64,000 bases of DNA from a bacterium (GTDB taxonomy: Bacteria > Verrucomicrobiota > Verrucomicrobiia > Limisphaerales > RI-55), in the NCBI GenBank assembly GCA_031362805.1, contig JANLTG010000043.1, forward strand, positions 5,395 to 69,394, read 5' to 3'. The notes beneath the pieces are model-generated. The model saw only the letters and a list, made by a program, of their open reading frames with translations, was not told the origin of the DNA and ran no database searches. Shown here in pieces: positions 2,106 through 63,745 of the stretch. A program made the translations under genes and the position numbers. How positions within the stretch are numbered: position 1 is the stretch's first letter; the number at the start of each line of letters is the position of its first letter.

Positions 2106-3392
2106 TTAGAAAAGTTGACCGAGCACTGACGCCAACTGCTGGGAATCGAGAATGAATAGCAGTCCCAGCGCAAAGAAGTTGAACGAAAGAACCACACCGA
2201 GGGCGTAACTCAAAGGCGAGGTGAAATATTTCAGGGCGCCGGGATGGCGAACCTGGCGCTTCCATTTTTGATAAACATTGACGGCGGCAATGCCAATCCC
2301 GTGGTAAAGCCCCCAAAGAATAAAATTGAACGTCGGACCATGCCACGCACCACAGAGAAAAAAGGTGACGATGATGGCCAGATTGGAAATGACCAGCGGG
2401 TATTTTCGGAGCATTTCATTGCTCCGCAGCTTGCGAACCAGAGGCCAGTATACGTAATCCGTGAGCCACCCCGTCAGTGACATGTGCCAATTCGCCCAGA
2501 GTTGCTGAAGATTCTTCTTCAAGAACGGCTGATTGAAATTTTCGGGGAGGTTGAAACCCAGCAACCGCGCGCTGCCGATGGCAAGGTCGGTATAGCCGGA
2601 GAAGTCGATGTAGAAATAGAGGGCATAGGCATAGAGGCACAGGAGAACCTGCCACGGGGCCATTTCCGCCAACGGGACCTTGGTGCCAATGAGTGTGTAC
2701 GGGAACAGAAGCACGGTGATCACGAATTTCTTGAACAGGCCGTGAATGATCCGCTCCGCACCTGCAGAGAAGTCATCACGCCACGGCGCACGATTGGCGC
2801 GAGCAGAATGGGCGATAAAATCGTTGAACCGATTGATGGGACCGCTGACAAACGCGGGGAAGAAGAGGAGGAAGTTCAAAGTGTCCAGAAGGCGCGGACG
2901 CTTGATGGTGCCCTTGAACGATTCGATAAGGAAATGGATCGCCTTGAAGGAGGAATAGGAGATCCCGACCAGGAAGATGAAATCGGAAGCGCCCGACCCG
3001 AGGATTGATTTGTCGTGGAGGACGAGGGTCTGCAAAAAGCGGTACTTGAAAACCGCGAGCACAAACAGCACGAGCACGACGCCGAGAATCGCCAATGGAA
3101 GGCGCGACGACGGACGCTTCGCCAACGGTCCCTCGTTGAGGGCGAGTCCGATGCCATAGGTGACCAACGTCAGGCCACCATAAATCAGCAAGGCCGCGCC
3201 GTTGAATTGAGGCAGGGCCAGGAGCATTAAAACATTCGCGCCCAGCAGCAGCAGATCACCGACGGTGCCACGACGCGGAAGCAACCGGAGCGCGACAACG
3301 ACGATCGCAAAATAAGCCCAGAACGCGGCACTCGAAAAGAATTCGGCGGAAGGCAACCCGTGAAGGAACTGGGAGATTGATTCCAAGGTCAT
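2106..3392 (-). CDS. MBOAT-family membrane O-acyltransferase (AlgI/DltB/PatA-like)
   Basis: Track ORF is 2106..3503. The first ATG with a sensible N-terminus is at 3392 (MTLESISQFLHG...); the upstream codons read through heptad repeats. It is a multi-TM protein with the MBOAT signature QQLWANWHMSLTGWLTDYVYWPL (compare WRRWHISLSxWLRDYLYIPLGG). Confidence 0.85.
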   Translation of the reverse strand: MTLESISQFLHGLPSAEFFSSAAFWAYFAIVVVALRLLPRRGTVGDLLLLGANVLMLLALPQFNGAALLIYGGLTLVTYGIGLALNEGPLAKRPSSRLPLAILGVVLVLFVLAVFKYRFLQTLVLHDKSILGSGASDFIFLVGISYSSFKAIHFLIESFKGTIKRPRLLDTLNFLLFFPAFVSGPINRFNDFIAHSARANRAPWRDDFSAGAERIIHGLFKKFVITVLLFPYTLIGTKVPLAEMAPWQVLLCLYAYALYFYIDFSGYTDLAIGSARLLGFNLPENFNQPFLKKNLQQLWANWHMSLTGWLTDYVYWPLVRKLRSNEMLRKYPLVISNLAIIVTFFLCGAWHGPTFNFILWGLYHGIGIAAVNVYQKWKRQVRHPGALKYFTSPLSYALGVVLSFNFFALGLLFILDSQQLASVLGQLF

Positions 3393-3999
3393 TAGTACGA
3401 AAAGATGCAAGTCAGTTGACCGACGACCGACGACCGACGACCGACGACAGAGGACAGAGGACAGAGGACAGAGGACCGAAGACGGTAGACAGAGGACTGT
3501 CAAAAAAGGAAAGCAGCAGCACTTAACCGCCCGCCTTCATTCCTTGAACTTCGTCGCGGCACGCAGATGAACACAGATGGACGCAGATGAGCGGCCGAGG
3601 GAGTAATGGAGAGTTGGAGAGTTGGAATCGGACGACAGAGGACGGTGGACGGGTAAAGGAGAAAAGGAGCGGGGGAGCGGGGGAGCGGGGCGAAAGAGAC
3701 AGCCAACATTCAACGTTCAATGTTCAACTACCAAGGTGAGGGCGAAGGAGGTCGGAGTCTTTACGCGAATCAACACGAATTAACGCCAAGCGGAATCAGC
3801 CACGAAAGGGCGCAAAGGGCGCACAGTCCGTTTAACAGGAACTAACGGAGGAAGCGGAGGACGGAGGACCGAAGACGGTAGGCTGAAGACGGTCAAAAGC
3901 AGAAAACAGAAAGCGGAAATCAGTGGACCGACGACGGATGACCGAGGACAAGGAACGCTCAACGTCCAATGGCCAATGTTCAAAGCAGATACTGCGGCG
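3393..3999. repeat. 607-bp spacer made entirely of mosaic repeat modules
   Basis: Contains the GAC-phased heptad array, a TTAACC-CAGATG-type module, GGAGAGTTGGAGAGTTGG, GGAGCGGGGGAGCGGGGGAGCGGGG and AACRTTC heptads. It also contains TTTACGCGAAT..CACGAAT, GCCACGAAAGGGCGCAAAGGGCGCACAG, GTTTAACAGGAACTAACGGAGG and a CAAAAGC heptad run. All of these recur in other spacers. Confidence 0.9.
3418..3501. repeat. 12 consecutive in-register GAC-N4 heptads
   Basis: Counted base by base: (GACCGAC)x4 (GACAGAG)x4 GACCGAA GACGGTA GACAGAG GACTGTC. Confidence 0.95.
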
Positions 4000-4980: not shown

Positions 4981-6150
4981 TCAGTTTTGACCCCGCCCAT
5001 GATCCGGCTTGAGGGCGTCATAGAGGTACTCCCCGACGACCAGGCTGGTGGGCCCGTTGTAATGGCCGTCGGAGTCGAAATTCAACTTCTCCCCTTTGCT
5101 GAAACGCTCCTGCACGGGTGGATTCAGATCGATGAACTTTATTCCTTCGACCTGGCAGTGCTTTCGGACTACCTCCACAAAAAACTCCGTGTCAATCAGG
5201 CTGGGATCCAGTTTGCCTTTGGCCGCGAGGTCGTTTACGTGGAACACCCCGGCCGGTGGACAGTAAACGCCGATGGGAGTGGCGTTCAGACTGCGGACGA
5301 ACTGCTCAAGCTCCTGGAGATTCTTCAGAAAATCTGCGGTTTTCTCCGGTTTATGAATACGGTGACTGGAGGAAAAGCGTTCCACGTAGAATGACAGCGG
5401 GGCGTCCTCCCCTTTGAAATACCGGCGCTGCGTGTTTCGAATGCCGTCGCGCAGGAAGCAGTAACCAGCCGAAGTGTTCGCCAAGAATTTTCTGAGCAAG
5501 GGGATTCTCCAATTGCTGCCCTCGAAGAGGTCTCCCCGGCGCACAACGACGTCGGGATGGTTGTCGTCATACCCACCAATCAGCAATGGGTTGAAAACGA
5601 TGATCACCGCCTGCGGTGGGTTGGTGACAGACGCCGTGAAGCTCTTGAACAGGGCGGCTTGCTCCTGCAGATGGTGCCCAGCCACCGCGAGGTTAACCAC
5701 GTCAATATTATGGTCTTTAAGTTTTTCGGCGACGATGCCCACGAATGTTTGTTCGTAGTCGAGTCCGTTGCCAAAAGCGTCGGATGCTCCGAGGATCACG
5801 TAATATGGCCGCCCTCCGATAGATTGAGGGCCGGGTTTGGGTGATCGGAAGCCAAGATCGGAAGTATGGACGCTAAATTTTAGAGTAGGCCAAAATACTT
5901 CCTTGGTCACGCTTTTCTTCAAGACGTACGAAATACCACCTTGTTCGAAGTAGCCTTCCAAGTTCCCCATGTGGTAGCGACCAGTGGCTCGCAGGCCAAC
6001 CTCCAGCGTAATAATGCAGAATAGTAACGTGACAAGCACAACGCCGATTTTGGAGAGGCCTCGCCGAATAGTCTGCAGCGAACCTGACGAGCGGACGGTT
6101 GAACCATTCTCCGGAATCATGTTCTGTAAGGATGGGATAATTGGGCTCAT
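4981..6150 (-). CDS. Membrane-anchored SGNH/GDSL-like hydrolase or acyl-esterase (AlgX/AlgJ-role candidate)
   Basis: 389 aa with an N-terminal TM helix (VVLVTLLFCIITLEVGL). The block-I-like motif is YVILGASDAFGNG and the C-terminal DSDGHYN resembles the SGNH Asp/His block. Confidence 0.5.
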   Translation of the reverse strand: MSPIIPSLQNMIPENGSTVRSSGSLQTIRRGLSKIGVVLVTLLFCIITLEVGLRATGRYHMGNLEGYFEQGGISYVLKKSVTKEVFWPTLKFSVHTSDLGFRSPKPGPQSIGGRPYYVILGASDAFGNGLDYEQTFVGIVAEKLKDHNIDVVNLAVAGHHLQEQAALFKSFTASVTNPPQAVIIVFNPLLIGGYDDNHPDVVVRRGDLFEGSNWRIPLLRKFLANTSAGYCFLRDGIRNTQRRYFKGEDAPLSFYVERFSSSHRIHKPEKTADFLKNLQELEQFVRSLNATPIGVYCPPAGVFHVNDLAAKGKLDPSLIDTEFFVEVVRKHCQVEGIKFIDLNPPVQERFSKGEKLNFDSDGHYNGPTSLVVGEYLYDALKPDHGRGQN

Positions 6151-6237
6151 CGTCTTGCCATAATAGAGGGCTGCTTCAAGAGTTATTGGGGTACAGGAAC
6201 GATCGGTCTGAATTTTTCCAATACCAGCGCCGTGACT

Positions 6238-6708
6238 CTATCCTTTTGAGCTTTCCAAGACTTCCGCACTTGCGCGTTTATGGATTATTCTCGCTGGCAC
6301 GCCCACGGCAGTTGCGCCGGCGGGGACGTCGGTCAGCACCACGGCATTGGCCCCAACCCGCGCGCCGTCTCCAATTCTGATGCTTCCCAAGATTTTTGCG
6401 CCGGCGCCTATGCGAACGTTGTCGCCAATGATTGGCGCTACGGTTTCGTCCCAACGAATTCCAATCGTAACGTGCTGATCAATCCGAACGTTGTTGCCAA
6501 TTACGCAACGGTAGTCCAAAATAGTACCCATGCCATTGTGCCCAAAATGTACATTTACCCGGCCGATCCTTGTCTTGTAGGGGATAAAGCAGCAAAATAC
6601 GAATCGAAGGAACTGCTGGATCAAAAAGGGGAGGATCGGAACTTTCCAGCGGTATAAAGTATTCGCCGTTCGGTAGATGAAGTAAGGCAGGTTTGAATGT
6701 GTCTTCAT
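6238..6708 (-). CDS. Hexapeptide-repeat O-acetyltransferase (serine acetyltransferase/CysE-like)
   Basis: Track ORF is 6238..6876; the ATG at 6708 gives MKTHSNLPYFIYR.... The LbH repeats IGDNVRIGAGAKILGSIRIGDGARVGANAVVLTDVPAGATAVGVPARI are typical of EPS-locus CysE-like acetyltransferases. Confidence 0.75.
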   Translation of the reverse strand: MKTHSNLPYFIYRTANTLYRWKVPILPFLIQQFLRFVFCCFIPYKTRIGRVNVHFGHNGMGTILDYRCVIGNNVRIDQHVTIGIRWDETVAPIIGDNVRIGAGAKILGSIRIGDGARVGANAVVLTDVPAGATAVGVPARIIHKRASAEVLESSKG

Positions 6709-6712
6709 GGTA

Positions 6713-8365
6713 TCAGGTTGACTGCTCGCCGGCCCTTGCGGGAGGCTTGACCTTGCGAAGGCATGCGAAGATTGGTCGCGCCCGGTCCCGAAATTCACAA
6801 AACCCGCGCCTCGCTCCGGCCCAAAATGATGTGCGAGGCGCCCGAACCGTTTGTGGATCGATGCCCTCGGCAACAACGGATGTCAGTTCAATTTCCGTCC
6901 CGGGGTTTACTTTGATGGCTCCAGCCCGATACCCGTCAATTCGAACCCCATTCAACTGTCCATAGCGCAACTCAAGAGTTTCGTGTTCATCCGCCTCGAA
7001 CCAGGCACGGTGGACGATGAGATTGACGGCGTCCGACGGAATGCCAACTTGCACGCGACGCGAATACATCTTGACGTGCAGCGTGTCCCCGTCCTGATGG
7101 GTGCAGAAATTGGAACGAGCCATCGCCCGCATGTTCATCCAGCTCACATTCCCAACCGAGTTGATGCGATCGGCGAACTGCTTCATGATATCCAACCCGC
7201 CACTGACATCATCGTGATGGCCAACAAGAATGATAGGCTTTTGAAGCAGTGCGGCCAGATAGACATCCACTTCCCGTTCGTGGGCCAGCTTAAACCGGGG
7301 GATGACGGGGAATCCCGTTTCAAGATACTCGGCCGGGTTCAATCCGACGGTCTGTGGCCAGTCCCGATTCTGGTTGTAATGCATCAGCGACCAGCGGGAA
7401 ATACAGGCGGCCTCAAACCCGACCTGCAACATGGCGGCGGCCATCTCCTGGCTGCAGCCGCCATGGGGGGCCGCCATGATGCGGGAGATTTCCAAACCGG
7501 AACGTGCTTCCAGGCGGGCGATTCGGAGCAATGCCTGAGCCATGAGCCCCAGACGATGGCCGACAGGATAATCTTGAGCCAGTTCAGCGTAGGTGTGGTT
7601 ATTGCCATGGACGAGCAGTGAAAGCCGATCCTTATGGGCACGAAACAAGGCGGCAGTGGCGGGATGTACATACCAACCATCGAAGGGCACTGTCGCGAAC
7701 GACACATGGTAATTATGCGCGCGGGCATGCCGGGCCATTTCCTCGTACCGCACGCAGCCATAGGTCTTCCAATGCAGGTTGGGATCGTCGAACATCAAAC
7801 ATCCGCGCAGCGGCGGCCGCTTCCAGGGAGAAAGACCGCGCAGAAAATGCATGAGCGGCAACAAGTGCATGAAGTTGTCACGCTGAAGAAACTGGTACAG
7901 ATATTCGCCGCCGCCCAACGATGGGAGGTCCACGGCCAGAAGATCAATGGAGGCCTTCCCAACGACCCGATGAATCCATAGAATGTCTTCACCCTTGCGA
8001 GTGATCACTTCATCACCGCTTTTGGACTTCAGCTCACGGAGTTGCTTGATAGAGCGGTCACGAATGACACGGCCACGAAAACTCCGATCCAAACAAGGTA
8101 GCGCAGCCATCGAGAGGTCCGCCGTCTCCGACCTGACAGCAACGGGTGGCTGCCCGAGAAAGGCCAGGCAGGGAATTCCCGACCCAGCGATGCGCTCCGC
8201 CGCATCACGGCTCTGGCCGAAGAGCAAGGCTGCGGCACAATCGGATAGCTTGCCTTCGTCACGCGCCACGAACTGAAGCGTGTAAAGTTCACCCAAGGCA
8301 TCGAACAATCGCCGATGGCCGGACAATGCTTCAGAGGAAACCAGGGCAATTCTTACAGGCTTCAT
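6713..8365 (-). CDS. 550-aa protein of unknown function with a putative deacetylase/GH-like barrel core
   Basis: The ATG at 8365 (MKPVRIALVSSE...) overlaps the upstream stop (ATGA). The central segment CLMFDDPNLHWKTYGCVRYEEMARHARAHNYHVSFATVPFDGW...LLVHGNNHTYAEL resembles DUF2334/polysaccharide-deacetylase-like barrels. The N- and C-terminal domains are not recognised. Confidence 0.35.
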   Translation of the reverse strand: MKPVRIALVSSEALSGHRRLFDALGELYTLQFVARDEGKLSDCAAALLFGQSRDAAERIAGSGIPCLAFLGQPPVAVRSETADLSMAALPCLDRSFRGRVIRDRSIKQLRELKSKSGDEVITRKGEDILWIHRVVGKASIDLLAVDLPSLGGGEYLYQFLQRDNFMHLLPLMHFLRGLSPWKRPPLRGCLMFDDPNLHWKTYGCVRYEEMARHARAHNYHVSFATVPFDGWYVHPATAALFRAHKDRLSLLVHGNNHTYAELAQDYPVGHRLGLMAQALLRIARLEARSGLEISRIMAAPHGGCSQEMAAAMLQVGFEAACISRWSLMHYNQNRDWPQTVGLNPAEYLETGFPVIPRFKLAHEREVDVYLAALLQKPIILVGHHDDVSGGLDIMKQFADRINSVGNVSWMNMRAMARSNFCTHQDGDTLHVKMYSRRVQVGIPSDAVNLIVHRAWFEADEHETLELRYGQLNGVRIDGYRAGAIKVNPGTEIELTSVVAEGIDPQTVRAPRTSFWAGARRGFCEFRDRARPIFACLRKVKPPARAGEQST

Positions 8366-9165
8366 GGGGACGACACGACTTGTTTTTCCCCTGCGGCCCC
8401 GCAACTCGGATCGGTGCTCCGCACTTTTCGGGGGGTCAGACGACGGAAAAGGCGAAAGAGCGCGAAGACGGCGCACGGAATCGCGCAAGCGAGATAGAGA
8501 ACGGACTTTCCCCCGGGCCGGCCTGAATTCAGAACCCATTCGTAGAGATAGCCGAGGCTCTCGGTGACCATTTCCTTGGTGCGCTCACTGGATTGCCACC
8601 ATGCCTTGCCTTGCGTTGCATACGGACACCAGGCGACAATTCCGACGCGAGTTGCTGGACCGAAAACCTTCGAATACACCAAGCGAGTCCGCCGACAATG
8701 CGGTCCGCGGCTGAAGACGTTGATTGCCCCAACAGCGAAGCCCCGGAGTTCCAGCAACCGCTTCGCCGCCAGGGCGGATTCGAAGGTGCGCTGACTGTCA
8801 GATTCCAGACTTGGCGCCGAGAGTAACTTGTCGGCGGAGAGTCCAAGTACCAGCAATTCCTGCCTCGCGTTTTCCGCAAGGTTGAAGCGGTTCAATGCCC
8901 AAGAAGGTCCGCTCGGTCCGCCCGTTACTACAAGGTAATCGTAGCCCCCGCGACGGAACTCCTCCGCAGTTGCCGGCATTCCTTCCGAGTGAATCCACCC
9001 CTCCACGATCAGAACACTGGCTGGGACACGAGCCGTGACCGAAAGCCAAGATTCGCCCCACAAGACGCATGCCATCGCCAGGGTTACCGGTGAAACCAAG
9101 AGACAACTCCAACCGATCCAAGTCGGCCACCAGATCGTCCGCCGTTGAAAGAAAGCGCACTTCAC
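8362..9165 (-). CDS. DUF218 (YdcF/ElyC/SanA) family protein
   Basis: 267 aa with a GTG start and N-terminal TM helices. The core reads LIVEGWIHSEG...YDYLVVTGGP...ESALAAKRLLELRGFAVGAINVFSRGPHCRRTRLVY, matching the DUF218 pattern. Confidence 0.6.
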   Translation of the reverse strand: MKCAFFQRRTIWWPTWIGWSCLLVSPVTLAMACVLWGESWLSVTARVPASVLIVEGWIHSEGMPATAEEFRRGGYDYLVVTGGPSGPSWALNRFNLAENARQELLVLGLSADKLLSAPSLESDSQRTFESALAAKRLLELRGFAVGAINVFSRGPHCRRTRLVYSKVFGPATRVGIVAWCPYATQGKAWWQSSERTKEMVTESLGYLYEWVLNSGRPGGKSVLYLACAIPCAVFALFRLFRRLTPRKVRSTDPSCGAAGEKQVVSSP

Positions 9166-46511: not shown

Positions 46512-48647
46512 GTGCCGATCATCAACTTCATCTCGCTCGTCGCCGCCCTCGTTGCCGGGGCTTCCGCTCTGGCAGTTTTCTTTCGAGCCCGGCGTTCCCT
46601 GGCCAGCCGCCTCTTCGCCGTGGGCATGCTGCTGCTGGCCGCAGAGGCGGCGATCAACTTCATCTCCTACCAGCAGGTGCTGCTGGTTGATTTAATCTAC
46701 TGGCAGAAACTCCGTTTCATCCCCGTTTCCCTGCTGCCGTCGGTCTGGCTCGCCTTCAGCCTAGTCTATTCCCGGGGCAACTACGGCGAGTATCTCCGGC
46801 GCTGGCGAATCGCAATCATCGCGCTGGCGGTGGCACCGCCGCTATTGCTCGCACTGGGACACGAAACATTGCTCAGCGCCACGCTCGACCCGGGGGAGGG
46901 TTTGCACTGGACCCTGTTGCTGGGCTGGGCCTCGCAATCGCTGCAGTTCATCCTGGTAGCCGCCGCAGTGTTGGTGCTGATGAATCTCGAGCAGACGTTC
47001 AAAGCCTCCGTCGGCACGCAGCGCTGGCGGCTGAAGTTCGTGATCCTCGGGTTGGGCGCATTGTTCGCCGCCCGGGTTTATGCCGCCAGCCAGGCGCTGC
47101 TTTACCATAGCCTGCTGGAGAATTTGGGCCTGCTCAACGGCACGGCCTTGATTGTGGCCTGCCTCCTGGTGGCCGTCTCGCTCTCCCGCACGGGCGAGTT
47201 TTCGATCGACCTCTACCCCTCGCAAACGGCGCTGCACCGGTCGGTGGTGGTCATCATCGTGGGCAGCTATCTCTTGATCGTCGGGCTGCTGGCCAAACTG
47301 GCGGGCTGGCTGGGTAACACGGAGAACTTCCAATTCAATGCGCTGGTGGTTTTCGTCGCGCTGGTCCTGCTCGGGCTGATCCTGATGTCCGATCGCTTGC
47401 GGGAAGTTTCGTACGGCTGGCTGACCCGCCACTTCCGCCGGCCCCACTACGACTATCGCCAGGTCTGGAATGGCTTCACAGCCGCCACATCCGGCCATGC
47501 TTCCGAGGACACCGCTTGCCCGGCGCTTGCCAAGTGGACTTCGCACACGCTCAGCGCGCTGTCGGTCTCGGTCTGGCTGTTTGACGAGGCCCGCAACGAC
47601 TTGCAACTCACCGGCTCCACTTTGGACGCGGACCAACTTTCAGCCGGCGCAATTCGCGAAAACACAGGTGACTGGCAAGCCCTCAGCAAATCAGCGACAG
47701 AACTCTCCCAAATCGTGAATCTCGATGAAGAACGAACCCATCGCGCAGCCGTCCTCGCAAAGCTGCACCCGCGAATGTTCCCCAACGGCGGCGCCCGACT
47801 GGCCGTGCCAATGTTGGCCGATGGCGCTGCCGTTGGCATCCTGTTCGTGGGCGACCGCGTGAGCGGCATGCCGTTCACGACCGAAGACAAAGACCTGCTG
47901 CAAACGGTCGCCGAGCAGTCCACCAAGTTGCTGCTCAGCATCCGGCTCGCGCGGCGCATGATGGATGCGCGGGAGATGGAAGCCTTCCAGAGCATGTCCA
48001 CATTCTTCGTGCATGATCTCAAGAACACCGCGTCGGGGCTTTCGTTGATGCTGCAAAACCTGCCGCGGCATTTTGACAACCCGGAGTTTCGCGAGGACGC
48101 CCTCCGCTCGATTCGCAAAAGCGTGGAGCGCATCAACCAGATGATTGAATCGCTCTCGGCGCTGCGGCGCAAGCTGGTCATCGATCCGGTGTGGGGTGAC
48201 CTGGCTGAGCTGCGCCCGGTCGCCGAACGGCTGGCTCGCGAACGTGGGCTTTCGCTGCAGGCCGATTTTCAGCCCGCCGGCCCCGTTCGTTTCGACCGTG
48301 AGCAAATCGAGCGCGTGCTGACCAATCTCATCGTCAATGCGCATGAAGCCTCCCCCGATGGACAAGTCGTCACCGTTCGCACGTCACTCGGCGACGATGC
48401 GGCGCGGCTGATCGTCGAGGACCACGGCTGCGGCATGGCCACCGAATTCATTCAACGACAGCTGTTCCGCCCTTTTCATACGACCAAGAAGACCGGCACC
48501 GGGATTGGCCTTTACCACAGCAAACTGATTGTCGATGCTCACGGTGGCCGGATGGAGGTGCAGAGCGCACCCGGGACGGGCACCCGCATCAGCATCGTTT
48601 TGCCGCTACTCAAGTCACCCGATGAAGCCAGCCGTATTGATCGTTGA
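46512..48647 (+). CDS. prsK: PEP-CTERM-system sensor histidine kinase, PrsK-like
   Basis: 711 aa with a GTG start. The first ~300 aa are polytopic, followed by a GAF-like domain, the H-box STFFVHDLKNTASGL and an HATPase_c domain (DHGCGM...GTGIGL). The architecture matches PrsK, and the gene overlaps a PrsR-like gene. Confidence 0.7.
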   Translation: MPIINFISLVAALVAGASALAVFFRARRSLASRLFAVGMLLLAAEAAINFISYQQVLLVDLIYWQKLRFIPVSLLPSVWLAFSLVYSRGNYGEYLRRWRIAIIALAVAPPLLLALGHETLLSATLDPGEGLHWTLLLGWASQSLQFILVAAAVLVLMNLEQTFKASVGTQRWRLKFVILGLGALFAARVYAASQALLYHSLLENLGLLNGTALIVACLLVAVSLSRTGEFSIDLYPSQTALHRSVVVIIVGSYLLIVGLLAKLAGWLGNTENFQFNALVVFVALVLLGLILMSDRLREVSYGWLTRHFRRPHYDYRQVWNGFTAATSGHASEDTACPALAKWTSHTLSALSVSVWLFDEARNDLQLTGSTLDADQLSAGAIRENTGDWQALSKSATELSQIVNLDEERTHRAAVLAKLHPRMFPNGGARLAVPMLADGAAVGILFVGDRVSGMPFTTEDKDLLQTVAEQSTKLLLSIRLARRMMDAREMEAFQSMSTFFVHDLKNTASGLSLMLQNLPRHFDNPEFREDALRSIRKSVERINQMIESLSALRRKLVIDPVWGDLAELRPVAERLARERGLSLQADFQPAGPVRFDREQIERVLTNLIVNAHEASPDGQVVTVRTSLGDDAARLIVEDHGCGMATEFIQRQLFRPFHTTKKTGTGIGLYHSKLIVDAHGGRMEVQSAPGTGTRISIVLPLLKSPDEASRIDR

Positions 48648-49992
48648 CGACGACGAGGAGATCCGCACCCAGATGCGCTGGGCGCTCGCGGATGATTACG
48701 AACCCCTCCTCGCCGACAGCCGCGAAAGCGCACTCAAGGTTTTTAAGGACCGCCAGCCAGGTGTCGTGCTGCTCGATCTGGGCCTACCGCCCAACCCCAA
48801 CAACACAACCGAGGGAATGGCGATTCTCAGCGAGCTGCTCGCTGAGCAACCGGCCACCCGGGTGATCGTCATCACCGGCCAGACCGATCGCGAGCACGCC
48901 TTGCGCGCCATCGAAGCGGGAGCGCACGATTTCCTGGCCAAGCCCGTGCAGATGGAGGAGCTCAAGATCCTGCTTAAGCGTGCGACCGTGGTAGCCGATT
49001 TGAAACGCGCCGACCGCCTCGCCACCCACGGAACGGTGGCCGACGCGGACTTCGCGGGGTTGATCGGAAACAGCCCGGCGATGCACCAGATTTACGGTTT
49101 TATCACCAAAGTCGCGGGCACCGGCGCGCCGGTCCTGATTCTGGGGGAGAGCGGCACGGGCAAAGAAATGGCCGCCCAAGCCATTCACCTGCGCAGTTCG
49201 CGACGGGACGCCCCGTTTGTCGCGATCAATTGCGGCGCGATTCCCGAGGCGCTGCTGGAGAGCGAATTATTCGGTCACGAGAAAGGCTCGTTCACCGGCG
49301 CTCACACCCAGCGCAAAGGCCGCGTGGAGACTGCCGAGGGTGGCACGCTGTTTCTGGATGAGATCGGTGAAATGCCGCCCGCGCTCCAGGTCAAGCTGCT
49401 CCGCTTTTTGCAGGAGCGGAAGATTGAGCGCATTGGCGGCCGGGTAACAATCGACGTAGACGTCCGCATCATCGCCGCGACCAACTTGGACCTCTCGCTG
49501 CGCATTTCCGAGGGCCGTTTCCGCGAGGATCTCTACTATCGGCTGGCTGTGGTGAACATTTCGATGCCGCCGCTGAAGAGTCGGCCGGGCGATGTCCTGT
49601 TGCTCGCGCTGTCTTTCATCGAGCAATTCGCCCGCGAGCACGGCAAGCCGGCTCCCAAGTTTACCCTGCCGGCGCAGCGCGCGCTGGAGCATCATAACTG
49701 GCCTGGTAATGTGCGCGAGCTGCAAAACCGGGTTCGCCGCGCCTTCATCATGCACGAGGGCGCAAGCATCCGGCCCGAAGATCTCGAACTGGTGGACACC
49801 GGGCCAAAGGAGCCCAACAAATCGCTCAAGGCCGCCCGCGAGGAACTCGAACGCAGCATGGTCAGCGACGCGCTCCGCCGCAATCAGGGCAAGATCAGCC
49901 ATGCCGCCGTCGAGCTGGGCATCAGCCGGCCGACGCTTTACGAGCTCATGGAAAAGCTCGGCATCAAGAACGAGGATCGACCAGCCCCATAG
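48622..49992 (+). CDS. prsR: Sigma-54-dependent response regulator, PrsR-like (PEP-CTERM-box regulator)
   Basis: The ATG at 48622 begins [17 protein letters not shown]...[21 protein letters not shown] (the PrsR-typical receiver). It continues with the AAA+ domain ([14 protein letters not shown]-like [15 protein letters not shown]) and a C-terminal Fis-type HTH. Confidence 0.75.
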
Positions 49993-50004: not shown

Positions 50005-50925
50005 TCACTTCAGCGCGTCCACGACGGTGTTGATGTTGTGGCGAATCCAGCCTTCGTAAGTGCCCAGGTCGTAGGTTGCGCCCCCCGCCGTCTCGCTTTT
50101 CCCCGGCGTGCCGAGCGCGTCCGAGAACAGCTCGCCTCCAATCCGCGCACCTGAATCCTTGCTGATGCGCTCGATCGTCGCCGGTGACACGCTGGTCTCG
50201 ACGAAGATCGCCTTCACCTTGCGTTCCTTGATGAAGTCCACGATGCGCGTGATGTCGGCGAGCCCCGCTTCCGTCACCGTTGAGATGCCCTGGACGCCGA
50301 CAACTTCAAACCCAAACGCACGGCCAAAGTAGTTGAACGCGTCATGGCTGGTGATCAGCACCCGTCGGTCAGCCGGGAGTTCACTCGCGCGGCCCTTCGC
50401 CCAAGTCGCCAGTTGCTCGTAGTCTTTCTTCAACGCGGCGCCGCGCTGCTCATAGCCGTCTTTGCCGGCGGCATCATTCTCGACCAATGCCTTGACCACC
50501 GCGTCCACGCTGGCTGCCCACAAGGTGGGATCGCCCCAGACATGGGGATCCCAGTGACCTTGAAACTCCGGCGGTTCCAGCAACCGGTCCTCGGCCACCG
50601 TTTCCGTGATCGCGTAAACTTTCTTGCCGCGCCGCGCCATCTTCGAAAAAAGGTCTGCCATGCGACCTTCCAGCATCAGGCCGGAGTAAAAAATCACCTG
50701 CGCCCGACCCAGCCGGGTGACGTCGTTGGCGGAAGGTTTGTAAAGATGAGGATCCACGCCGGGCCCCATCAAGCCAACCACTTCGACCCGCTCACCGCCC
50801 ACCCGCTGCACCAGATCGGTGACCATGGTGGTGGTGGTGACGACGGCGAGCTTTTCAGCTCCGTTGGCGGGAACCGCAGCCATCGCCGCGATCACGACAA
50901 GGAGCATTGATCGAAATGGTTTCAT
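50005..50925 (-). CDS. Metal (Zn/Mn/Fe) ABC transporter substrate-binding protein, cluster A-I (ZnuA/TroA/YtgA-like)
   Basis: The ATG at 50925 gives MKPFRSMLLVVIAAMAAVPANGAE (signal peptide). The body shows KLAVVTTTTMVTDLV...GPGVDPHLYKP...DPHVWGDP...ITSHDAFNYF.... Confidence 0.85.
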   Translation of the reverse strand: MKPFRSMLLVVIAAMAAVPANGAEKLAVVTTTTMVTDLVQRVGGERVEVVGLMGPGVDPHLYKPSANDVTRLGRAQVIFYSGLMLEGRMADLFSKMARRGKKVYAITETVAEDRLLEPPEFQGHWDPHVWGDPTLWAASVDAVVKALVENDAAGKDGYEQRGAALKKDYEQLATWAKGRASELPADRRVLITSHDAFNYFGRAFGFEVVGVQGISTVTEAGLADITRIVDFIKERKVKAIFVETSVSPATIERISKDSGARIGGELFSDALGTPGKSETAGGATYDLGTYEGWIRHNINTVVDALK

Positions 50926-50999
50926 AGGAAAGACAGCCAACGGCTTTGTTTACCGGCGGATATTGATAGCTTGGAAATAGATTGGTGCAAGATATTAAT

Positions 51000-51013
51000 T
51001 TAGACTCGTCTAA
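51000..51013. promoter_or_regulatory. Palindromic box TTAGA-CTCG-TCTAA (candidate DtxR-family operator), site 1
   Basis: Centred about 81 nt upstream of the SBP ATG. The 17-mer TTAGACTCGTCTAACTT matches site 2 (63688) at 15 of 17 positions, in the same orientation relative to the downstream minus-strand gene. Confidence 0.4.
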
Positions 51014-51098
51014 CTTTAAATTTCGCAAACTGCCCCGGCTCCGCCGATCGCAAATTTGCTCTTTGCACTGGAGCGGCGGTCATTACGCTCGCTCCCGC

Positions 51099-59445: not shown

Positions 59446-60267
59446 ATGAATCCCGCCACGCTCCAGGAGCTGTTTCCCGATACCGATTACGGGTTCTCGA
59501 TGCGTATGCGGCCGGGGAACCCCGCGGATTTCTTCGCGCCCACCGCCGAATCTTCCGGCATTCTGCGCGAGCGCCGCTTCTGGCTGGAGCAGGCGCCGAC
59601 GAAGTACAGCGTGCTCGATCCCGACTACGAAGCACTCATCGATTCGTTGCGTCAATTCGCTGACACGGCCCGCAACGACTCTGCGAATTCCCGTGCTGCC
59701 GCTTCGACTCCAGCCGGCCGACTCCGCCAGTTGGGCGGCGAGTGGGAGCCAGATTTCATGATCGTTTCGCCTGATGCTGGCGGTCACTTCGTGCTTCGCG
59801 CCGGCTGCGTTTGTTTTCCATCCGGCTGGTCGCTCGAAGAGAAGCTGGGGCTGCCCATCGAGGAAATTCATGGTGTGGTCCCCGGCTTGAACGCCGCCGT
59901 GGGCGCGAAGATCCATCAATTCCTCACGCGCCTAAAGCCCGGCATCGGCTGGTACCGATCCAATTGGGGCATCAGTTCCTCGGCCAAGTTCAACCAGCAT
60001 CCCAGCCGCGCCATCAATCAGCTGACCAAAGACACGTCGCCCGCCGCAACCTGGCTGCGGATCGAGCATCAAGTGCTGACCAGCTTGCCCGGCTCGAACG
60101 CAATCCTGTTTGGCATCCGACTGGAGAATGTCGCGCTCGCGCAAATAAAGGAAGCTGTCGCGATCCGCGGCGGCCTTCGCCACGCGCTGGCCACGATGCC
60201 CGACCCGATGGCGGCCTACAAAAACCTTATCGCCGTGCGACCGGCGTTGCTGGATTACCTGGGCTGA
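59446..60267 (+). CDS. DUF3445-like protein (heme-dependent oxidative N-demethylase alpha-subunit family)
   Basis: 273 aa. ...FVLRAGCVCFPSGWSLEEKLGLPIEEIHGVVPGLN... resembles the DUF3445 core as recalled. Confidence 0.45.
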   Translation: MNPATLQELFPDTDYGFSMRMRPGNPADFFAPTAESSGILRERRFWLEQAPTKYSVLDPDYEALIDSLRQFADTARNDSANSRAAASTPAGRLRQLGGEWEPDFMIVSPDAGGHFVLRAGCVCFPSGWSLEEKLGLPIEEIHGVVPGLNAAVGAKIHQFLTRLKPGIGWYRSNWGISSSAKFNQHPSRAINQLTKDTSPAATWLRIEHQVLTSLPGSNAILFGIRLENVALAQIKEAVAIRGGLRHALATMPDPMAAYKNLIAVRPALLDYLG

Positions 60268-61285
60268 CGCCGCCGGCATCGTCGAATTGCGGTGCTTCAA
60301 CCTTCGCTGCGGACAGCCGGCGGCGGAGGCCCGGCAGCAAACCTTGCGAAGGACTGAACACCCAAGCGGCGCAGAACAGACCCGCTCCGGCCACCACCAT
60401 TGCGCCCGCCGTCGGGCAATCGAGCCAGATCGCGAGGTGCAACCCGGCGACCGCGCTCAGGGCGGCATGAGCCAGCGTCCACAGAAATATCAGAGGCAGG
60501 CGATGCGTGAGCAACGAGGCCGTCGCGCCGGGCAAGATCAACATCGCGATCACGAGAATTGCACCCACAGCTTCAAACGCACTGACCACCACAACGGACA
60601 GCCAACACATCAGCGCGTAATGCATGAGGCCGGGCTTGATGCCGAGCGACGCTGCGAGCCCGGAGTCAAACGAGCTGACCAGCAGTTCCTTGTAGAAAGC
60701 CAACACCAGCCCGCCCGTCGCCAGGAAGACCAGGCACATCCGCGCCACCGGCCACGGTGCCAATTCGGTGCCGCCCAACTGCACGAACGGATGTGAAGCC
60801 ACCAGACCCACCTCGCCATACAGAACACAGTCAGCATCGAGATCCACCTTGTCGGCGAACACACTGATCAAGATCACTCCGATGGCGAACAGGCTGGAAA
60901 ACGTGATGCCGATGGCCGCGTCCTGTTTGACCCGCGATTTCTTGTGAATCAGTTCAATGAGCAGCGTGGTCACGACACCCGCCGCCAGTGCGCCGATGAA
61001 CATCAGCGTTGGATTGCGCAGATCGTGACTCTCGCCACCCGCGACCGTGCCACCACCCGCCAGGCTGCCGGCGAGAAACGCGATCGCCAGTCCCGGCAAC
61101 ACGCTATGACTGATCGCGTCACCCACCAACGCCATGCGCCGCAGGATCAAGTACACACCCGTCAGGCCGCAGGCTGCCGCCACGAAGAAGCCCATCAACA
61201 CCACCCAGAGAAACACGCGCCAGTCCAAGGTCCACGGCTCAATGAACACGCGTTGAAAATCAAATGGCGGGATGAGTTCGGTCAT
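60227..61285 (-). CDS. Metal ABC transporter permease (ABC-3 family; TroD/YtgD-like)
   Basis: 352 aa and polytopic. Shows ...ALVGDAISHSVLPGLAIAF.... ATGA overlap with the upstream permease gene. Confidence 0.85.
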   Translation of the reverse strand: MTELIPPFDFQRVFIEPWTLDWRVFLWVVLMGFFVAAACGLTGVYLILRRMALVGDAISHSVLPGLAIAFLAGSLAGGGTVAGGESHDLRNPTLMFIGALAAGVVTTLLIELIHKKSRVKQDAAIGITFSSLFAIGVILISVFADKVDLDADCVLYGEVGLVASHPFVQLGGTELAPWPVARMCLVFLATGGLVLAFYKELLVSSFDSGLAASLGIKPGLMHYALMCWLSVVVVSAFEAVGAILVIAMLILPGATASLLTHRLPLIFLWTLAHAALSAVAGLHLAIWLDCPTAGAMVVAGAGLFCAAWVFSPSQGLLPGLRRRLSAAKVEAPQFDDAGGVSPGNPATPVARR

Positions 61286-62748
61286 GTCTTTCTCCCGTAG
61301 CCAACCATGCCCTCGGCCGGCCGTCGGCCCGGATCGTCCTGCAAAATCTCGGCGCTGCTCGGAATGATTCTCCCGTGTGGATCGCGCGTCGCGTAGGCGA
61401 GTCCCTTCTCCAGTTGGCGCACCACCTCTTCCCCCAGCACATGCTCAATCTCCTCGGCGTCGGCGTGAACGTGATCGGCGGCGATCTTGGCTTCGTTGGT
61501 GAGATAAAGCTCCCAGAGCCGGTGATTGCGGACGACGGCCCGGGCGCGCTGCCAGCCTTCCGGCGTGAGGTAAACCGCTTCGCCCGCTTCGTCGAACGTC
61601 GCCATGCCATGCTGGCGCAAGGCGCGCACCGCTTGCCGGATTTGTTCGATGGTCTCGCGCCGGAGTGCGCACAGTTCCTGGAGTGTCGCGCCTTCGCCGC
61701 GAAACTCGCGATCCTCCAACACGCGGAAGATCGCCTTGAGCAGATTCTCGCGTTCCACTCGTTGACTGCGGGAACGCTGGCGCCACCAGCGCGCCACCGT
61801 GCCGTGCCGCGGGCCAAACAGGAAGGCAGCGCCAAACAGAAAACTCGCGGCGAGAACCATGAACGGCCCGGTGGGCAAGTTGTTGCCGAGGAAGGAAAGG
61901 AACGCACCGAGAACGCCGGACGCGACGCCAAACGCCGCGGCGATCACCAGCATGCGATGCATGCGGTCCGTCAGGAGATACGCCGCCGCCGCCGGCGTGA
62001 TCAACATCGCCGAGACCAGCACCACCCCCACCGCCTGCAACGCAATTACGACCGCCGCCGCCAGCATCAACATGAGTCCATGGTGTAGCAACCGCGTGGG
62101 CAACCCAGTGGCCCGCGCAAACCCCGGGTCAAAACTGCTGACCAAAAGCTCCTTGTAGCAGAGCAACACTGCTGCGATCACGACCGTCGTCACGCCGGTC
62201 ATCAACTGCAGATCCTCCGTGCTGAGCGCCGCCGCCTGGCCGAAGAAAAACTTGTCGATGCCGCTCTTCGCACCGGTCGGTAGCCGCTCGATCATCTTTA
62301 CCAGACAGATGCCCACGGCGAAGAACGACGCGAGCACGAGGCCCAGCGCCGTGTCTTCCTTGAGTCGGGTGGTGTGGGTGATGGCGTAAACCGCCATGGT
62401 GCCCAGCAACCCGGCGATCGTGGCCCCGATGAAAATAGCGACGGGGTCCTTGGTCATGTTCCAGAGAAACCCGAGCGCCACGCCGGGCAACACGGCGTGG
62501 GAAAGCGCGTCGCCCATCAGCGACATCTTGCGCACCACGATGAAGCTGCCGAGCAAGCCACACGTGACACCGAGCAGCACGGATCCCAGCAAGACGGCGC
62601 GCAAGGATGGATCGCGCAGGCTGAAGAACCGCCAGGCCTGATCCAGCACGTTCGTGTCGGTCAGATCCCCGATCTTCGCCGCCTCAGCCGGCAACAAGCC
62701 GGCGAGCAACAGCGCAAACAGCAGCCAGATTTTCGGTTGGCGAAGCAT
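61282..62748 (-). CDS. Fusion protein: ABC-3 metal permease + C-terminal DtxR/MntR-family metalloregulator domain (YtgC-YtgR-like)
   Basis: The first ~300 aa are a permease (…SLMGDALSHAVLPGVALGF…). They are followed by ...NLLKAIFRVLED...TLQELCALRRETIEQIRQAVRALRQHGMATFDE...RNHRLWELYLTNEAKIAADHVHADAEEIEHVLGEEVVRQLEKGLAYATRDPHGRIIP. That is a winged HTH plus the DtxR dimerisation/metal-binding signature. Confidence 0.8.
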   Translation of the reverse strand: MLRQPKIWLLFALLLAGLLPAEAAKIGDLTDTNVLDQAWRFFSLRDPSLRAVLLGSVLLGVTCGLLGSFIVVRKMSLMGDALSHAVLPGVALGFLWNMTKDPVAIFIGATIAGLLGTMAVYAITHTTRLKEDTALGLVLASFFAVGICLVKMIERLPTGAKSGIDKFFFGQAAALSTEDLQLMTGVTTVVIAAVLLCYKELLVSSFDPGFARATGLPTRLLHHGLMLMLAAAVVIALQAVGVVLVSAMLITPAAAAYLLTDRMHRMLVIAAAFGVASGVLGAFLSFLGNNLPTGPFMVLAASFLFGAAFLFGPRHGTVARWWRQRSRSQRVERENLLKAIFRVLEDREFRGEGATLQELCALRRETIEQIRQAVRALRQHGMATFDEAGEAVYLTPEGWQRARAVVRNHRLWELYLTNEAKIAADHVHADAEEIEHVLGEEVVRQLEKGLAYATRDPHGRIIPSSAEILQDDPGRRPAEGMVGYGRKT

Positions 62749-62753
62749 GGCCG

Positions 62754-63602
62754 CTAACTGGTCTTCTGGCGGACGGCATCCGCCACTTCGGAAAGAATGG
62801 TCAGGCGACCGCCGTAAGTTTTCTGCAGCAACTCGTAGTTGAAAACCTCTTCCGTCGGGCCAAACGCGACCAGCCGCATGTTCAACAGGATCAGCAGGTC
62901 GAAATAGTTGCGCGCGGTCGGCAGATCGTGATGCACGACCAGCAGCGTCTTTCCCCGCGACTTCAGCTCATGCATGATTTCAACGATCGCAGACTCGGTC
63001 GCCGCATCCACGCCGGCGAACGGTTCGTCCATCAGGTATAGGTCACTCTCTTGGGCGAGCGCCCGGGCCAGAAACACGCGCTGCTGCTGGCCGCCGCTCA
63101 AGTTGGCGATCTGCCGATCCGCATAGGGCAGCATCTTCACCTTCTCCAGGCACTCGCGGGCGATCTCGCGATCCTGTTTCTTCGGCCGCTTGAACAAACC
63201 GAGCCGGCCGTAGCGCCCCATCAACACCACGTCCATGACGTTCACCGGAAAATCCCAGTCAACCGACTCCCGCTGCGGCACGTAGCCGACGCGCCGCAGG
63301 TTCGACTGAAACGGTTCGCCGAAAATCTTCACCCAGCCGCTGCTCAATGGCAGCAGCCCCATGATGGCCTTGATCAAGGTGGATTTGCCGGCGCCATTGG
63401 GGCCGATGATACCCACGAGCTTGCCTTTGGGAACTTGCAGGTCGATGCCCCACAGCACGGGTTTGCGATGATAGGAGACTGTCAGGTCATGGATCTCCAG
63501 GGGCAGCGCGCGCGGATCGGCGACGGGCGCCGTTTGGCCCGGCGTTAGGATCGCGAGTTCCCGGTTCTCCGGGCCTGGTTTGGGTGGCGTGGCGAGCGAC
63601 AT
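62754..63602 (-). CDS. Metal ABC transporter ATP-binding protein (ZnuC/TroB/YtgB-like)
   Basis: Shows Walker A GPNGAGKST, the signature LSGGQQQRVFLARAL and Walker B LYLMDEPFAGVD. Confidence 0.9.
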   Translation of the reverse strand: MSLATPPKPGPENRELAILTPGQTAPVADPRALPLEIHDLTVSYHRKPVLWGIDLQVPKGKLVGIIGPNGAGKSTLIKAIMGLLPLSSGWVKIFGEPFQSNLRRVGYVPQRESVDWDFPVNVMDVVLMGRYGRLGLFKRPKKQDREIARECLEKVKMLPYADRQIANLSGGQQQRVFLARALAQESDLYLMDEPFAGVDAATESAIVEIMHELKSRGKTLLVVHHDLPTARNYFDLLILLNMRLVAFGPTEEVFNYELLQKTYGGRLTILSEVADAVRQKTS

Positions 63603-63687
63603 GATATGAACGGCGCGTTCGATCGGGGACCGACCCCACGCCGCAAGCGTAGGCTAGGGCGGAGCAAGTTTGAGTCAAGTAGCAATG

Positions 63688-63701
63688 TTAGACCCTTCTA
63701 A
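63688..63701. promoter_or_regulatory. Palindromic box TTAGA-CCCT-TCTAA (candidate DtxR-family operator), site 2
   Basis: Centred about 92 nt upstream of the ABC ATPase ATG (63602). The extended form is GTTAGA-CCCT-TCTAAC, and the 17-mer TTAGACCCTTCTAACTT parallels site 1. Confidence 0.4.
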
Positions 63702-63745
63702 CTTCAATTCTGGAGCGACCGCTTGTGAATCTTCACTTCAATTGA

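Follow-up and report, generated by a model that had tools for sequence, protein, structure and literature searches.

Two copies of one palindromic box, each located in front of one half of a split metal importer, were confirmed as real and conserved cis-elements and are predicted to act as operators. Both lie in the window, the entire 64-kb stretch of DNA analysed here. The best explanation, which we hold with moderate confidence, is that the boxes are operators of the MntR branch, bound by a canonical stand-alone MntR that is encoded outside the window and confers metal-dependent repression. The regulon would be an ordinary small metal regulon of the known MntR kind. A small metal regulon tying the two loci together had been proposed in the initial annotation, and as far as sequence can tell the proposal stands: the box is common to both transcription units and is conserved in front of their orthologues.

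The gene context of both boxes agrees with the earlier description (Table 1). The importer is TroABCD-like, and each of its two halves has one of the boxes in its promoter region. The gene for the substrate-binding protein (SBP) is divergent from pyrE and has an alternative start codon, TTG, at position 50940. The solved homologue closest to the SBP was TroA of Treponema pallidum (1.6e-64). The stretches DPH, DPH, HDAF and SDA of TroA, which presumably hold the His/His/His/Asp metal ligands in the TroA structure, were kept in the alignment. Since these TroA-type ligand stretches are retained, the metal is not readable from the sequence of the SBP. For the ATPase, the nearest NCBIfam models were manganese/iron ATP-binding proteins, with scores below the cut-offs of these models. 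Homologues of the permease-DtxR fusion protein carry Verrucomicrobiota names in public records. The SBP gene converges with a gene on the plus strand (48529-49992) for a PEP-CTERM-box sigma-54 response regulator, whose NCBIfam score exceeded the cut-off, and in a close relative (locus L164) a gene for the exosortase EpsH (7954-8907) is divergent from the ATPase operon, suggesting a PEP-CTERM/exosortase neighbourhood.

Table 1. Genes of the split importer, predicted operators and putative promoter elements in the window
Feature	Position	Strand	Remarks
Substrate-binding protein (SBP), ZnuA/TroA family	50005-50925	-	Pfam ZnuA 3.4e-75; stand-alone transcription unit
Second ABC-3 permease, unfused	60227-61285	-	Pfam ABC-3 3.9e-50
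ABC-3 permease with C-terminal DtxR-like module (Fe_dep_repr_C)	61282-62748	-	Pfam ABC-3 and Fe_dep_repr_C
ABC ATPase, leading the operon downstream of box 2	62754-63602	-	Pfam ABC_tran
Box 1, predicted 22-bp palindromic operator	50996-51017	.	Divergent SBP/pyrE intergenic region; matrix score 26.7
Box 1 core, TTAGACTCGTCTAA	51000-51013		
Box 2, predicted 22-bp operator	63684-63705	.	Upstream of the ATPase-permease operon; matrix score 18.1
Box 2 core, TTAGACCCTTCTAA	63688-63701		
-35-like element TTGCAC	50985-50990	-	Downstream of box 1, 9 nt from its core
Weak -10-like element TATCAA	50963-50968	-	After a 16-nt spacer from TTGCAC
-35-like element TTGACT	63673-63678	-	Downstream of box 2, 9 nt from its core
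-10-like element TAGCCT	63651-63656	-	After a 16-nt spacer from TTGACT

The box sequences TTAGACTCGTCTAACTT (51000-51016) and TTAGACCCTTCTAACTT (63688-63704) were both read where the initial annotation had placed them, and its description of them was accurate: they are identical at 15 of 17 positions, and the inverted repeat TTAGA-N4-TCTAA is present in each. The fuller form is a 6-2-6 palindrome, TTAGAC-NN-GTCTAA, which is perfect at site 1 and matched at 5/6 at site 2. In gene-strand reading, box 1 is AAAGTTAGACGAGTCTAAATTA and box 2 is GAAGTTAGAAGGGTCTAACATT. The distances of 81 and 92 nt given for the downstream genes are correct when taken from the centre of the box, but not from its edge, which lies 74 nt from the ATG of the SBP gene and 85 nt from that of the ATPase gene. 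When the 64 kb were searched with the 17-mer pattern at up to two mismatches, matches occurred at the two box sites only, with 0.07 expected. Because the motif is palindromic, the two sites count as four strand-hits, a number reached by none of 100 shuffles. The bare 14-mer core, again at up to two mismatches, was not significant in the window (two found versus 0.59 expected, with 13 of 100 shuffles reaching two). The significance of the boxes is thus due to the longer shared context and the location, and not to the 14-bp core alone.

Conservation was followed in two sets of 80 loci each, one drawn from species-representative genomes and encoding fusion-protein relatives, the other drawn from metagenomes and encoding relatives of the binding protein. 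The exact motif TTAG-N6-CTAA occurred in about 27 of the 80 loci of the fusion set, nearly always in intergenic DNA before the operon. The aligned sites yielded a 22-bp palindrome, AAAgTTAGcCwwGgCTAAcTTT, which is wider than the 17-bp box noted before. In the 22-bp weight matrix, built from 24 sites, TTAG and CTAA occupy positions ±4 to ±7 and A/T-rich flanks positions ±9 to ±11. At a matrix score of at least 18, 32 sites were detected in 1.18 Mb of related loci versus 2 in locally shuffled sequence. In 57 of 136 loci, the 400 bp before the SBP start contained a site scoring at least 16, where the shuffle rate predicts about 0.4. By our own tally, 28 of these 57 loci stem from the SBP-seeded metagenome set, which had not been used in building the matrix. 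The SBPs of the related loci were 37-64% identical to the SBP of the window, and 79% in L090. Conservation in orthologous promoters was therefore established, the 22-bp palindrome being found before orthologous operons in dozens of Verrucomicrobiota contigs. In the window itself, the third-best match to the matrix (AATTTTAGAGTAGGCCAAAATA, 5876-5897, score 17.3, one core mismatch) lies inside an ORF on the minus strand (4981-6150) and is probably due to chance.

Closely related promoters were also compared directly. An alignment of the regions upstream of the ATPase gene in the window, L001, L164 and L166 contained three conserved islands, TTAG....GTCTAAcATT, CTTGACcCAA and CTAGcTT, while the middle of the box and the remaining spacer varied. 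The SBP promoters of the window and of L090, which has the same neighbouring orientation, shared (T/A)TAG..GTCTAAATT and TCTTGC.CCAATCT. In L090, the locus of the closest SBP orthologue, the right half of box 1 and the spacer downstream were thus kept.

Most relatives have one box before a single operon, with genes for the SBP, often an outer-membrane barrel or a TonB-dependent receptor, the ATPase, the permease-DtxR fusion and a permease. In L001, L164 and L166, where the fusion protein is 79-83% identical to that of the window, the ATPase gene comes first and the SBP gene is absent nearby, as in the window. Lone SBP genes with their own box were found in L082, L095, L101 and L108. Once the SBP gene is split from the operon, two boxes are what the co-regulation of both units needs. 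Outer-membrane proteins, namely Phenol_MetA_deg barrels, OprB porins and TonB-dependent receptors, are encoded in or lead box-preceded operons of relatives (L012, 8310-9131; L060, 8328-9146; L006, 7948-9210; L039, 3110-5290; L171, 4996-5865) and are candidate outer-membrane metal channels. No outer-membrane protein gene adjoins the SBP gene of the window. One clade has the fusion without any of the three box types distinguished below (L027, 8106-8145; L028, 8123-8160; L032, 3988-4025); two adjacent conserved palindromes, TGTTTTA-N4-TAAAACA and GTGTTtgactgAACAC, are located upstream of its SBP gene.

A profile search of all ORFs of the fetched loci detected a stand-alone gene of the DtxR family beside the box in about 50 related loci, usually divergent from the SBP gene and with the box in between. 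The short regulators among them have the domains PF01325, the DNA-binding domain of Pfam, and PF02742, and match MntR of B. halodurans (1e-33) and of B. subtilis (9e-33); the PF01325 match of neighbouring short MntR-type genes ranged from 1e-18 to 1e-21. MntR genes are thus associated with the box, and the stand-alone regulators have a recognition helix that covaries with the box variant. Regulators adjacent to TTAG boxes carry the helix I(S/A)QASVT(N/G)MIQ (7/7, plus L079), those adjacent to GTAG boxes (S/T)HVTV.RT (6/6), and TTTG boxes (TTTTGACTAATCAAAA) are accompanied by long regulators with a FeoA domain and PG(T/S)ATSM (most of 19). Within a box class, helix 3 was the most conserved part of the stand-alone regulators (0.31 bits). 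In L171, a perfect AAAGTTAGTTGAAACTAACTTT is located between mntR and an operon for a barrel, ZnuA, the ATPase and two ABC-3 permeases; both permeases are unfused, showing that the box does not need the fusion.

The mechanism that we favour, repression by a stand-alone MntR, would proceed as follows. Each box would be one palindrome of 18-22 bp, composed of two 9-bp inverted repeats (AAAgTTAGnc/gnCTAAcTTT, the slash marking the dyad), and would bind one regulator dimer. In this lineage the SBP gene has been separated from the rest, and each of the two units has a box of its own, placed 9 nt before a putative -35 element of the TTGAC type. The same box at the same place before both units means that one regulator can co-regulate them. 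From the comparison with related loci we infer that the binder in this genome is a canonical MntR with the recognition helix I(S/A)QASVT(N/G)MIQ(R/K)LD, its gene lying outside the 64-kb window, and that the regulator, when loaded with metal (probably Mn2+), occupies the box and lowers transcription. With the box centred near -52, repression may be achieved by occlusion of the UP-element/α-CTD region together with crowding of sigma region 4.

By hmmsearch the window contained no stand-alone MntR gene, and in the two closest relatives none was found up to 10 kb away from the operon. Strong TTAG boxes were present in 59 loci, of which only 11 had a stand-alone regulator in the fetched DNA. MntR genes can, as we observed, sit far from any such transporter, which makes a copy elsewhere in this genome plausible. 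A search for MntR homologues of the TTAG-class type gave 6823 matches, the best 120 of which were 77-93% identical, and several such homologues are named MntR in verrucomicrobial metagenome-assembled genomes.

The main rival explanation takes the permease-fused DtxR-like domain as the protein that binds the box; this domain would be cleaved off, or act while tethered to the membrane, as in YtgR, so that the transporter autoregulates both units. We consider this rather unlikely. Several observations speak for it, beginning with the domain being, as stated in the initial annotation, the sole DtxR-like ORF in the window (hmmsearch), and the majority of strong-box loci being without a stand-alone regulator nearby. 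The fused two-domain module comprises residues about 326-470 of the permease and matches SloR, DtxR and DR2539 at 1e-11 to 4e-15. An AF2 model of the fused protein (pLDDT 83) exhibited the full winged helix-turn-helix (wHTH) and the dimerisation fold; its best structural matches were DR2539, IdeR, SloR and DtxR, with TM scores of 0.72-0.87, the structures of DR2539 and IdeR being those bound to DNA. Judged by this model, the fused domain is a genuine two-domain module of the DtxR family in which the wHTH fold has been kept. Its metal-binding and dimer helices were nearly fixed (0.47-0.48 bits) across 25 loci, all with TTAG boxes. A precedent exists in YtgC-YtgR, which is cleaved and represses its own promoter (PMC5599777).

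The segment expected to read the DNA behaves differently: helix 3 was the most variable segment of the fused domain (2.23 bits) in the same 25 loci, although these share the same TTAG box. None of 23 members had a PF01325 match. A covariation of the fused-domain helix 3 with the box class was looked for by eye and discarded, since no obvious pattern emerged. The domain is moreover more similar to the TroR/SloR/DtxR branch. In the loci studied, the boxes that accompany this branch belong to the TTTG type, which is absent from the window. Together with the stand-alone MntR genes beside the boxes and the box without fusion in L171, the hypervariable helix and the lack of PF01325 matches leave the implied role of the fused domain as regulator of the box unsupported.

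What the fused domain does instead may be suggested only tentatively. It is possible, if somewhat doubtful, that in free-living Verrucomicrobiota the domain serves as a transporter-attached metal sensor, either gating the transporter by trans-inhibition or titrating or partnering the true regulator, and not as a sequence-specific repressor, while a separate MntR reads the box. In the metagenomic loci L133, L138, L139, L152, L154 and L155, a C-terminal DtxR-like domain is present on each of the two permeases, and a stand-alone regulator of three domains is encoded in addition, so that one locus contains three DtxR-like modules (an example is L154, with 3268-3933, 5783-7015 and 7111-8346). The gene for this third regulator is in divergent orientation, the gap being occupied by a TTTTGACTAATCAAAA box. 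Loci with the domain on both permeases and a third regulator would fit a paired sensor module under the transporter. If the domain is indeed a sensor, the YtgR repressor of Chlamydia would be the exception and not the rule for this widespread fusion.

The position of the boxes relative to the promoter bears on the sign of regulation. The -35-like element (TTGC/TTGAC) that had been reported on the gene-ward side of each box was recovered as TTGCAC and TTGACT, exactly 9 nt after the core in both cases. The corresponding offset of +23 from the start of the core to the start of the -35-like hexamer was observed in 14 strong-box sites, window site 2 included. A scan with simple promoter and terminator consensus sequences found nothing at either window site; no promoter was called there because the -10 elements are weak. 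We infer the promoters listed in Table 1 from these elements, which would place the boxes near -52. A location upstream of -35 is not the classic position of a repressor and, like the negative promoter scan, counts against repression by MntR as the best explanation. A precedent for repression from such a position is given by T. denticola TroR, which represses from an operator 10 bp away from the promoter (PMC2628430).

An activator site is the second alternative: RNA polymerase would be recruited to promoters with weak -10 elements by a regulator at about -52, a position that shares its helix face with -41.5 and -62. The constant spacing of 9 nt from the TTGAC-like element in the 14 sites and the weak -10-like hexamers would suit an activator, and MntR of B. 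subtilis can activate from sites upstream of or overlapping -35 (PMC11882963), as does Zur in Streptomyces (PMC9371925). We nevertheless regard activation as improbable. The target is an uptake system, for which activation by a metal-loaded regulator would be counter-productive, and the T. denticola TroR operator demonstrates repression from a comparable distance. In other lineages, the boxes occupy repressor positions. There, the box is situated between -35 and -10, after TTGACA and before the start codon, and its CTAAT overlaps the -10 element, or a second box is present: tandem boxes flanking the promoter, 44-47 bp apart from centre to centre, were found in 11 loci (L081, L082, L084, L087, L088, L091, L094, L096, L104, L003 and L026), the first upstream of -35 and the second over -10/+1.

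Among the loci with the box between TTGACA and the start codon, L057, L061, L065, L074, L078 and L079 have the ATG only about 8-10 nt past the box, so that their mRNAs may be leaderless or nearly so. In the window, a second weak box over the -10 elements of the promoters was not found, and the boxes are single. A weak matrix match at 63665-63686 (score 3.0), which ranks in about the top 0.1% of all positions in the window, overlaps TTGACT exactly 19 bp downstream of box 2. The cooperative MntR arrays of B. subtilis have this 19-bp register. At box 1, no comparable weak match was detected. The -35-like element is kept beyond the hexamer as CTTG(A/C)(C/A)CCAAT in the window (50981-50991 and 63669-63679) as well as in L001, L090, L164 and L166, and the left part of this motif is similar to the left half of a TroR-like operator of the TTTG type. 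At site 1, another possible promoter (TTTAAA-17-TAATAT), which would enclose the box, was dropped because it is not kept in L090.

The reading of the box as a site of another regulator family (Fur/Zur or similar), or as a chance similarity without function, is highly improbable and largely refuted: taken by itself, the 14-bp core is no statistical rarity in the window, but the longer motif greatly exceeds chance expectation, its position is conserved across many genomes, the box has MntR genes next to it that covary with it, and at up to three mismatches the window contained no match to the 19-bp DtxR/IdeR iron box TTAGGTTAGCCTAACCTAA or to the Fur/Zur box GATAATGATAATCATTATC, the latter search covering the classical 19-bp Fur consensus only.

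These results provide a concrete predicted operator and a 22-bp matrix for metal regulation, probably by manganese, in Verrucomicrobiota; a description of such a regulon in this phylum was not found in the literature searched. Through the copies of the box, an importer that has been split would stay co-regulated. The permease-fused domain, a homologue of Chlamydia YtgR, does not evolve like a reader of the box. The role of permease-regulator fusions outside Chlamydia thereby becomes a directly testable question, and a more interesting one than the box itself.

The box had been assigned to the DtxR-family kind of operators, which it fits; by its geometry and its similarity to MntR boxes it would belong to the MntR branch. 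The consensus palindrome (AAAGTTAGCCAAGGCTAACTTT) is identical at 17 of 22 positions to AAACATAGCAAAGGCTATGTTT, which is located directly upstream of E. coli mntH and which we take to be the MntR box of Patzer and Hantke (2001). As in MntR systems, the targets are metal uptake genes. Unlike MntR boxes with ATAG/CTAT, the box has TTAG/CTAA in its core, and in contrast to known MntR systems it lies upstream of -35 and the regulator gene is absent from the window. Cryo-EM of MntR from B. subtilis on DNA revealed that each dimer reads two 9-bp inverted repeats, that His35, Pro36, Ser37 and Lys41 contact the base pairs 4-7 from the dyad, and that T occurs at -7 in 19 of 20 half-sites (PMC11882963). 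The boxes described here resemble these sites in having their conserved bases, here TTAG/CTAA, at exactly ±4 to ±7 and T at -7. The four contacting residues of B. subtilis MntR are replaced by Ser/Ala, Gln, Ala and Asn/Gly, respectively, in the TTAG-class regulators.

The streptococcal elements of SloR and ScaR, which also belong to the DtxR family and have a manganese ABC importer as target, exhibit the same 6-6-6 geometry, with AATTAA-N6-TTAATT as compared to AnTTAG-N6-CTAAnT (PMC12096823). The sequence of the half-sites differs, and for SloR three such elements lie side by side, overlapping -35 and -10. The DtxR/IdeR iron box is likewise an AT-rich palindrome with TTAG...CTAA, but it is 19 bp long, has an odd centre and is bound by two dimers.

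The Treponema tro system is related through the SBP, which is closest to T. pallidum TroA, and its operator is an 18-bp dyad before troA. The mutated T. denticola operator as printed ends in TTTCAAAAT (PMC2628430), suggesting that the Treponema operator resembles the TTTG-class boxes beside the long FeoA-domain regulators of the relatives. In the window, a search for a TroR-type dyad (TTTTGA...TCAAAA; TTTG-N6-CAAA) yielded nothing above chance, and the only matches in promoters were the TTAG boxes themselves at three mismatches.

The closest parallel to the fusion protein is YtgC-YtgR of the Chlamydia ytgABCD system, likewise an ABC-3 permease with a C-terminal two-domain DtxR-like module in a TroABCD-like importer. 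The protein is cleaved, and YtgR acts as an iron-dependent repressor of its own operon (PMC5599777, PMC6504234). Such permease-repressor fusions have been noted in 11 phyla, and the Chlamydia system belongs to a sister phylum of the PVC group (PMC5599777). Unlike YtgR, the fused domains described here have a divergent and fast-evolving wHTH sequence, and the promoter carries a MntR-type box that also occurs without the fusion.
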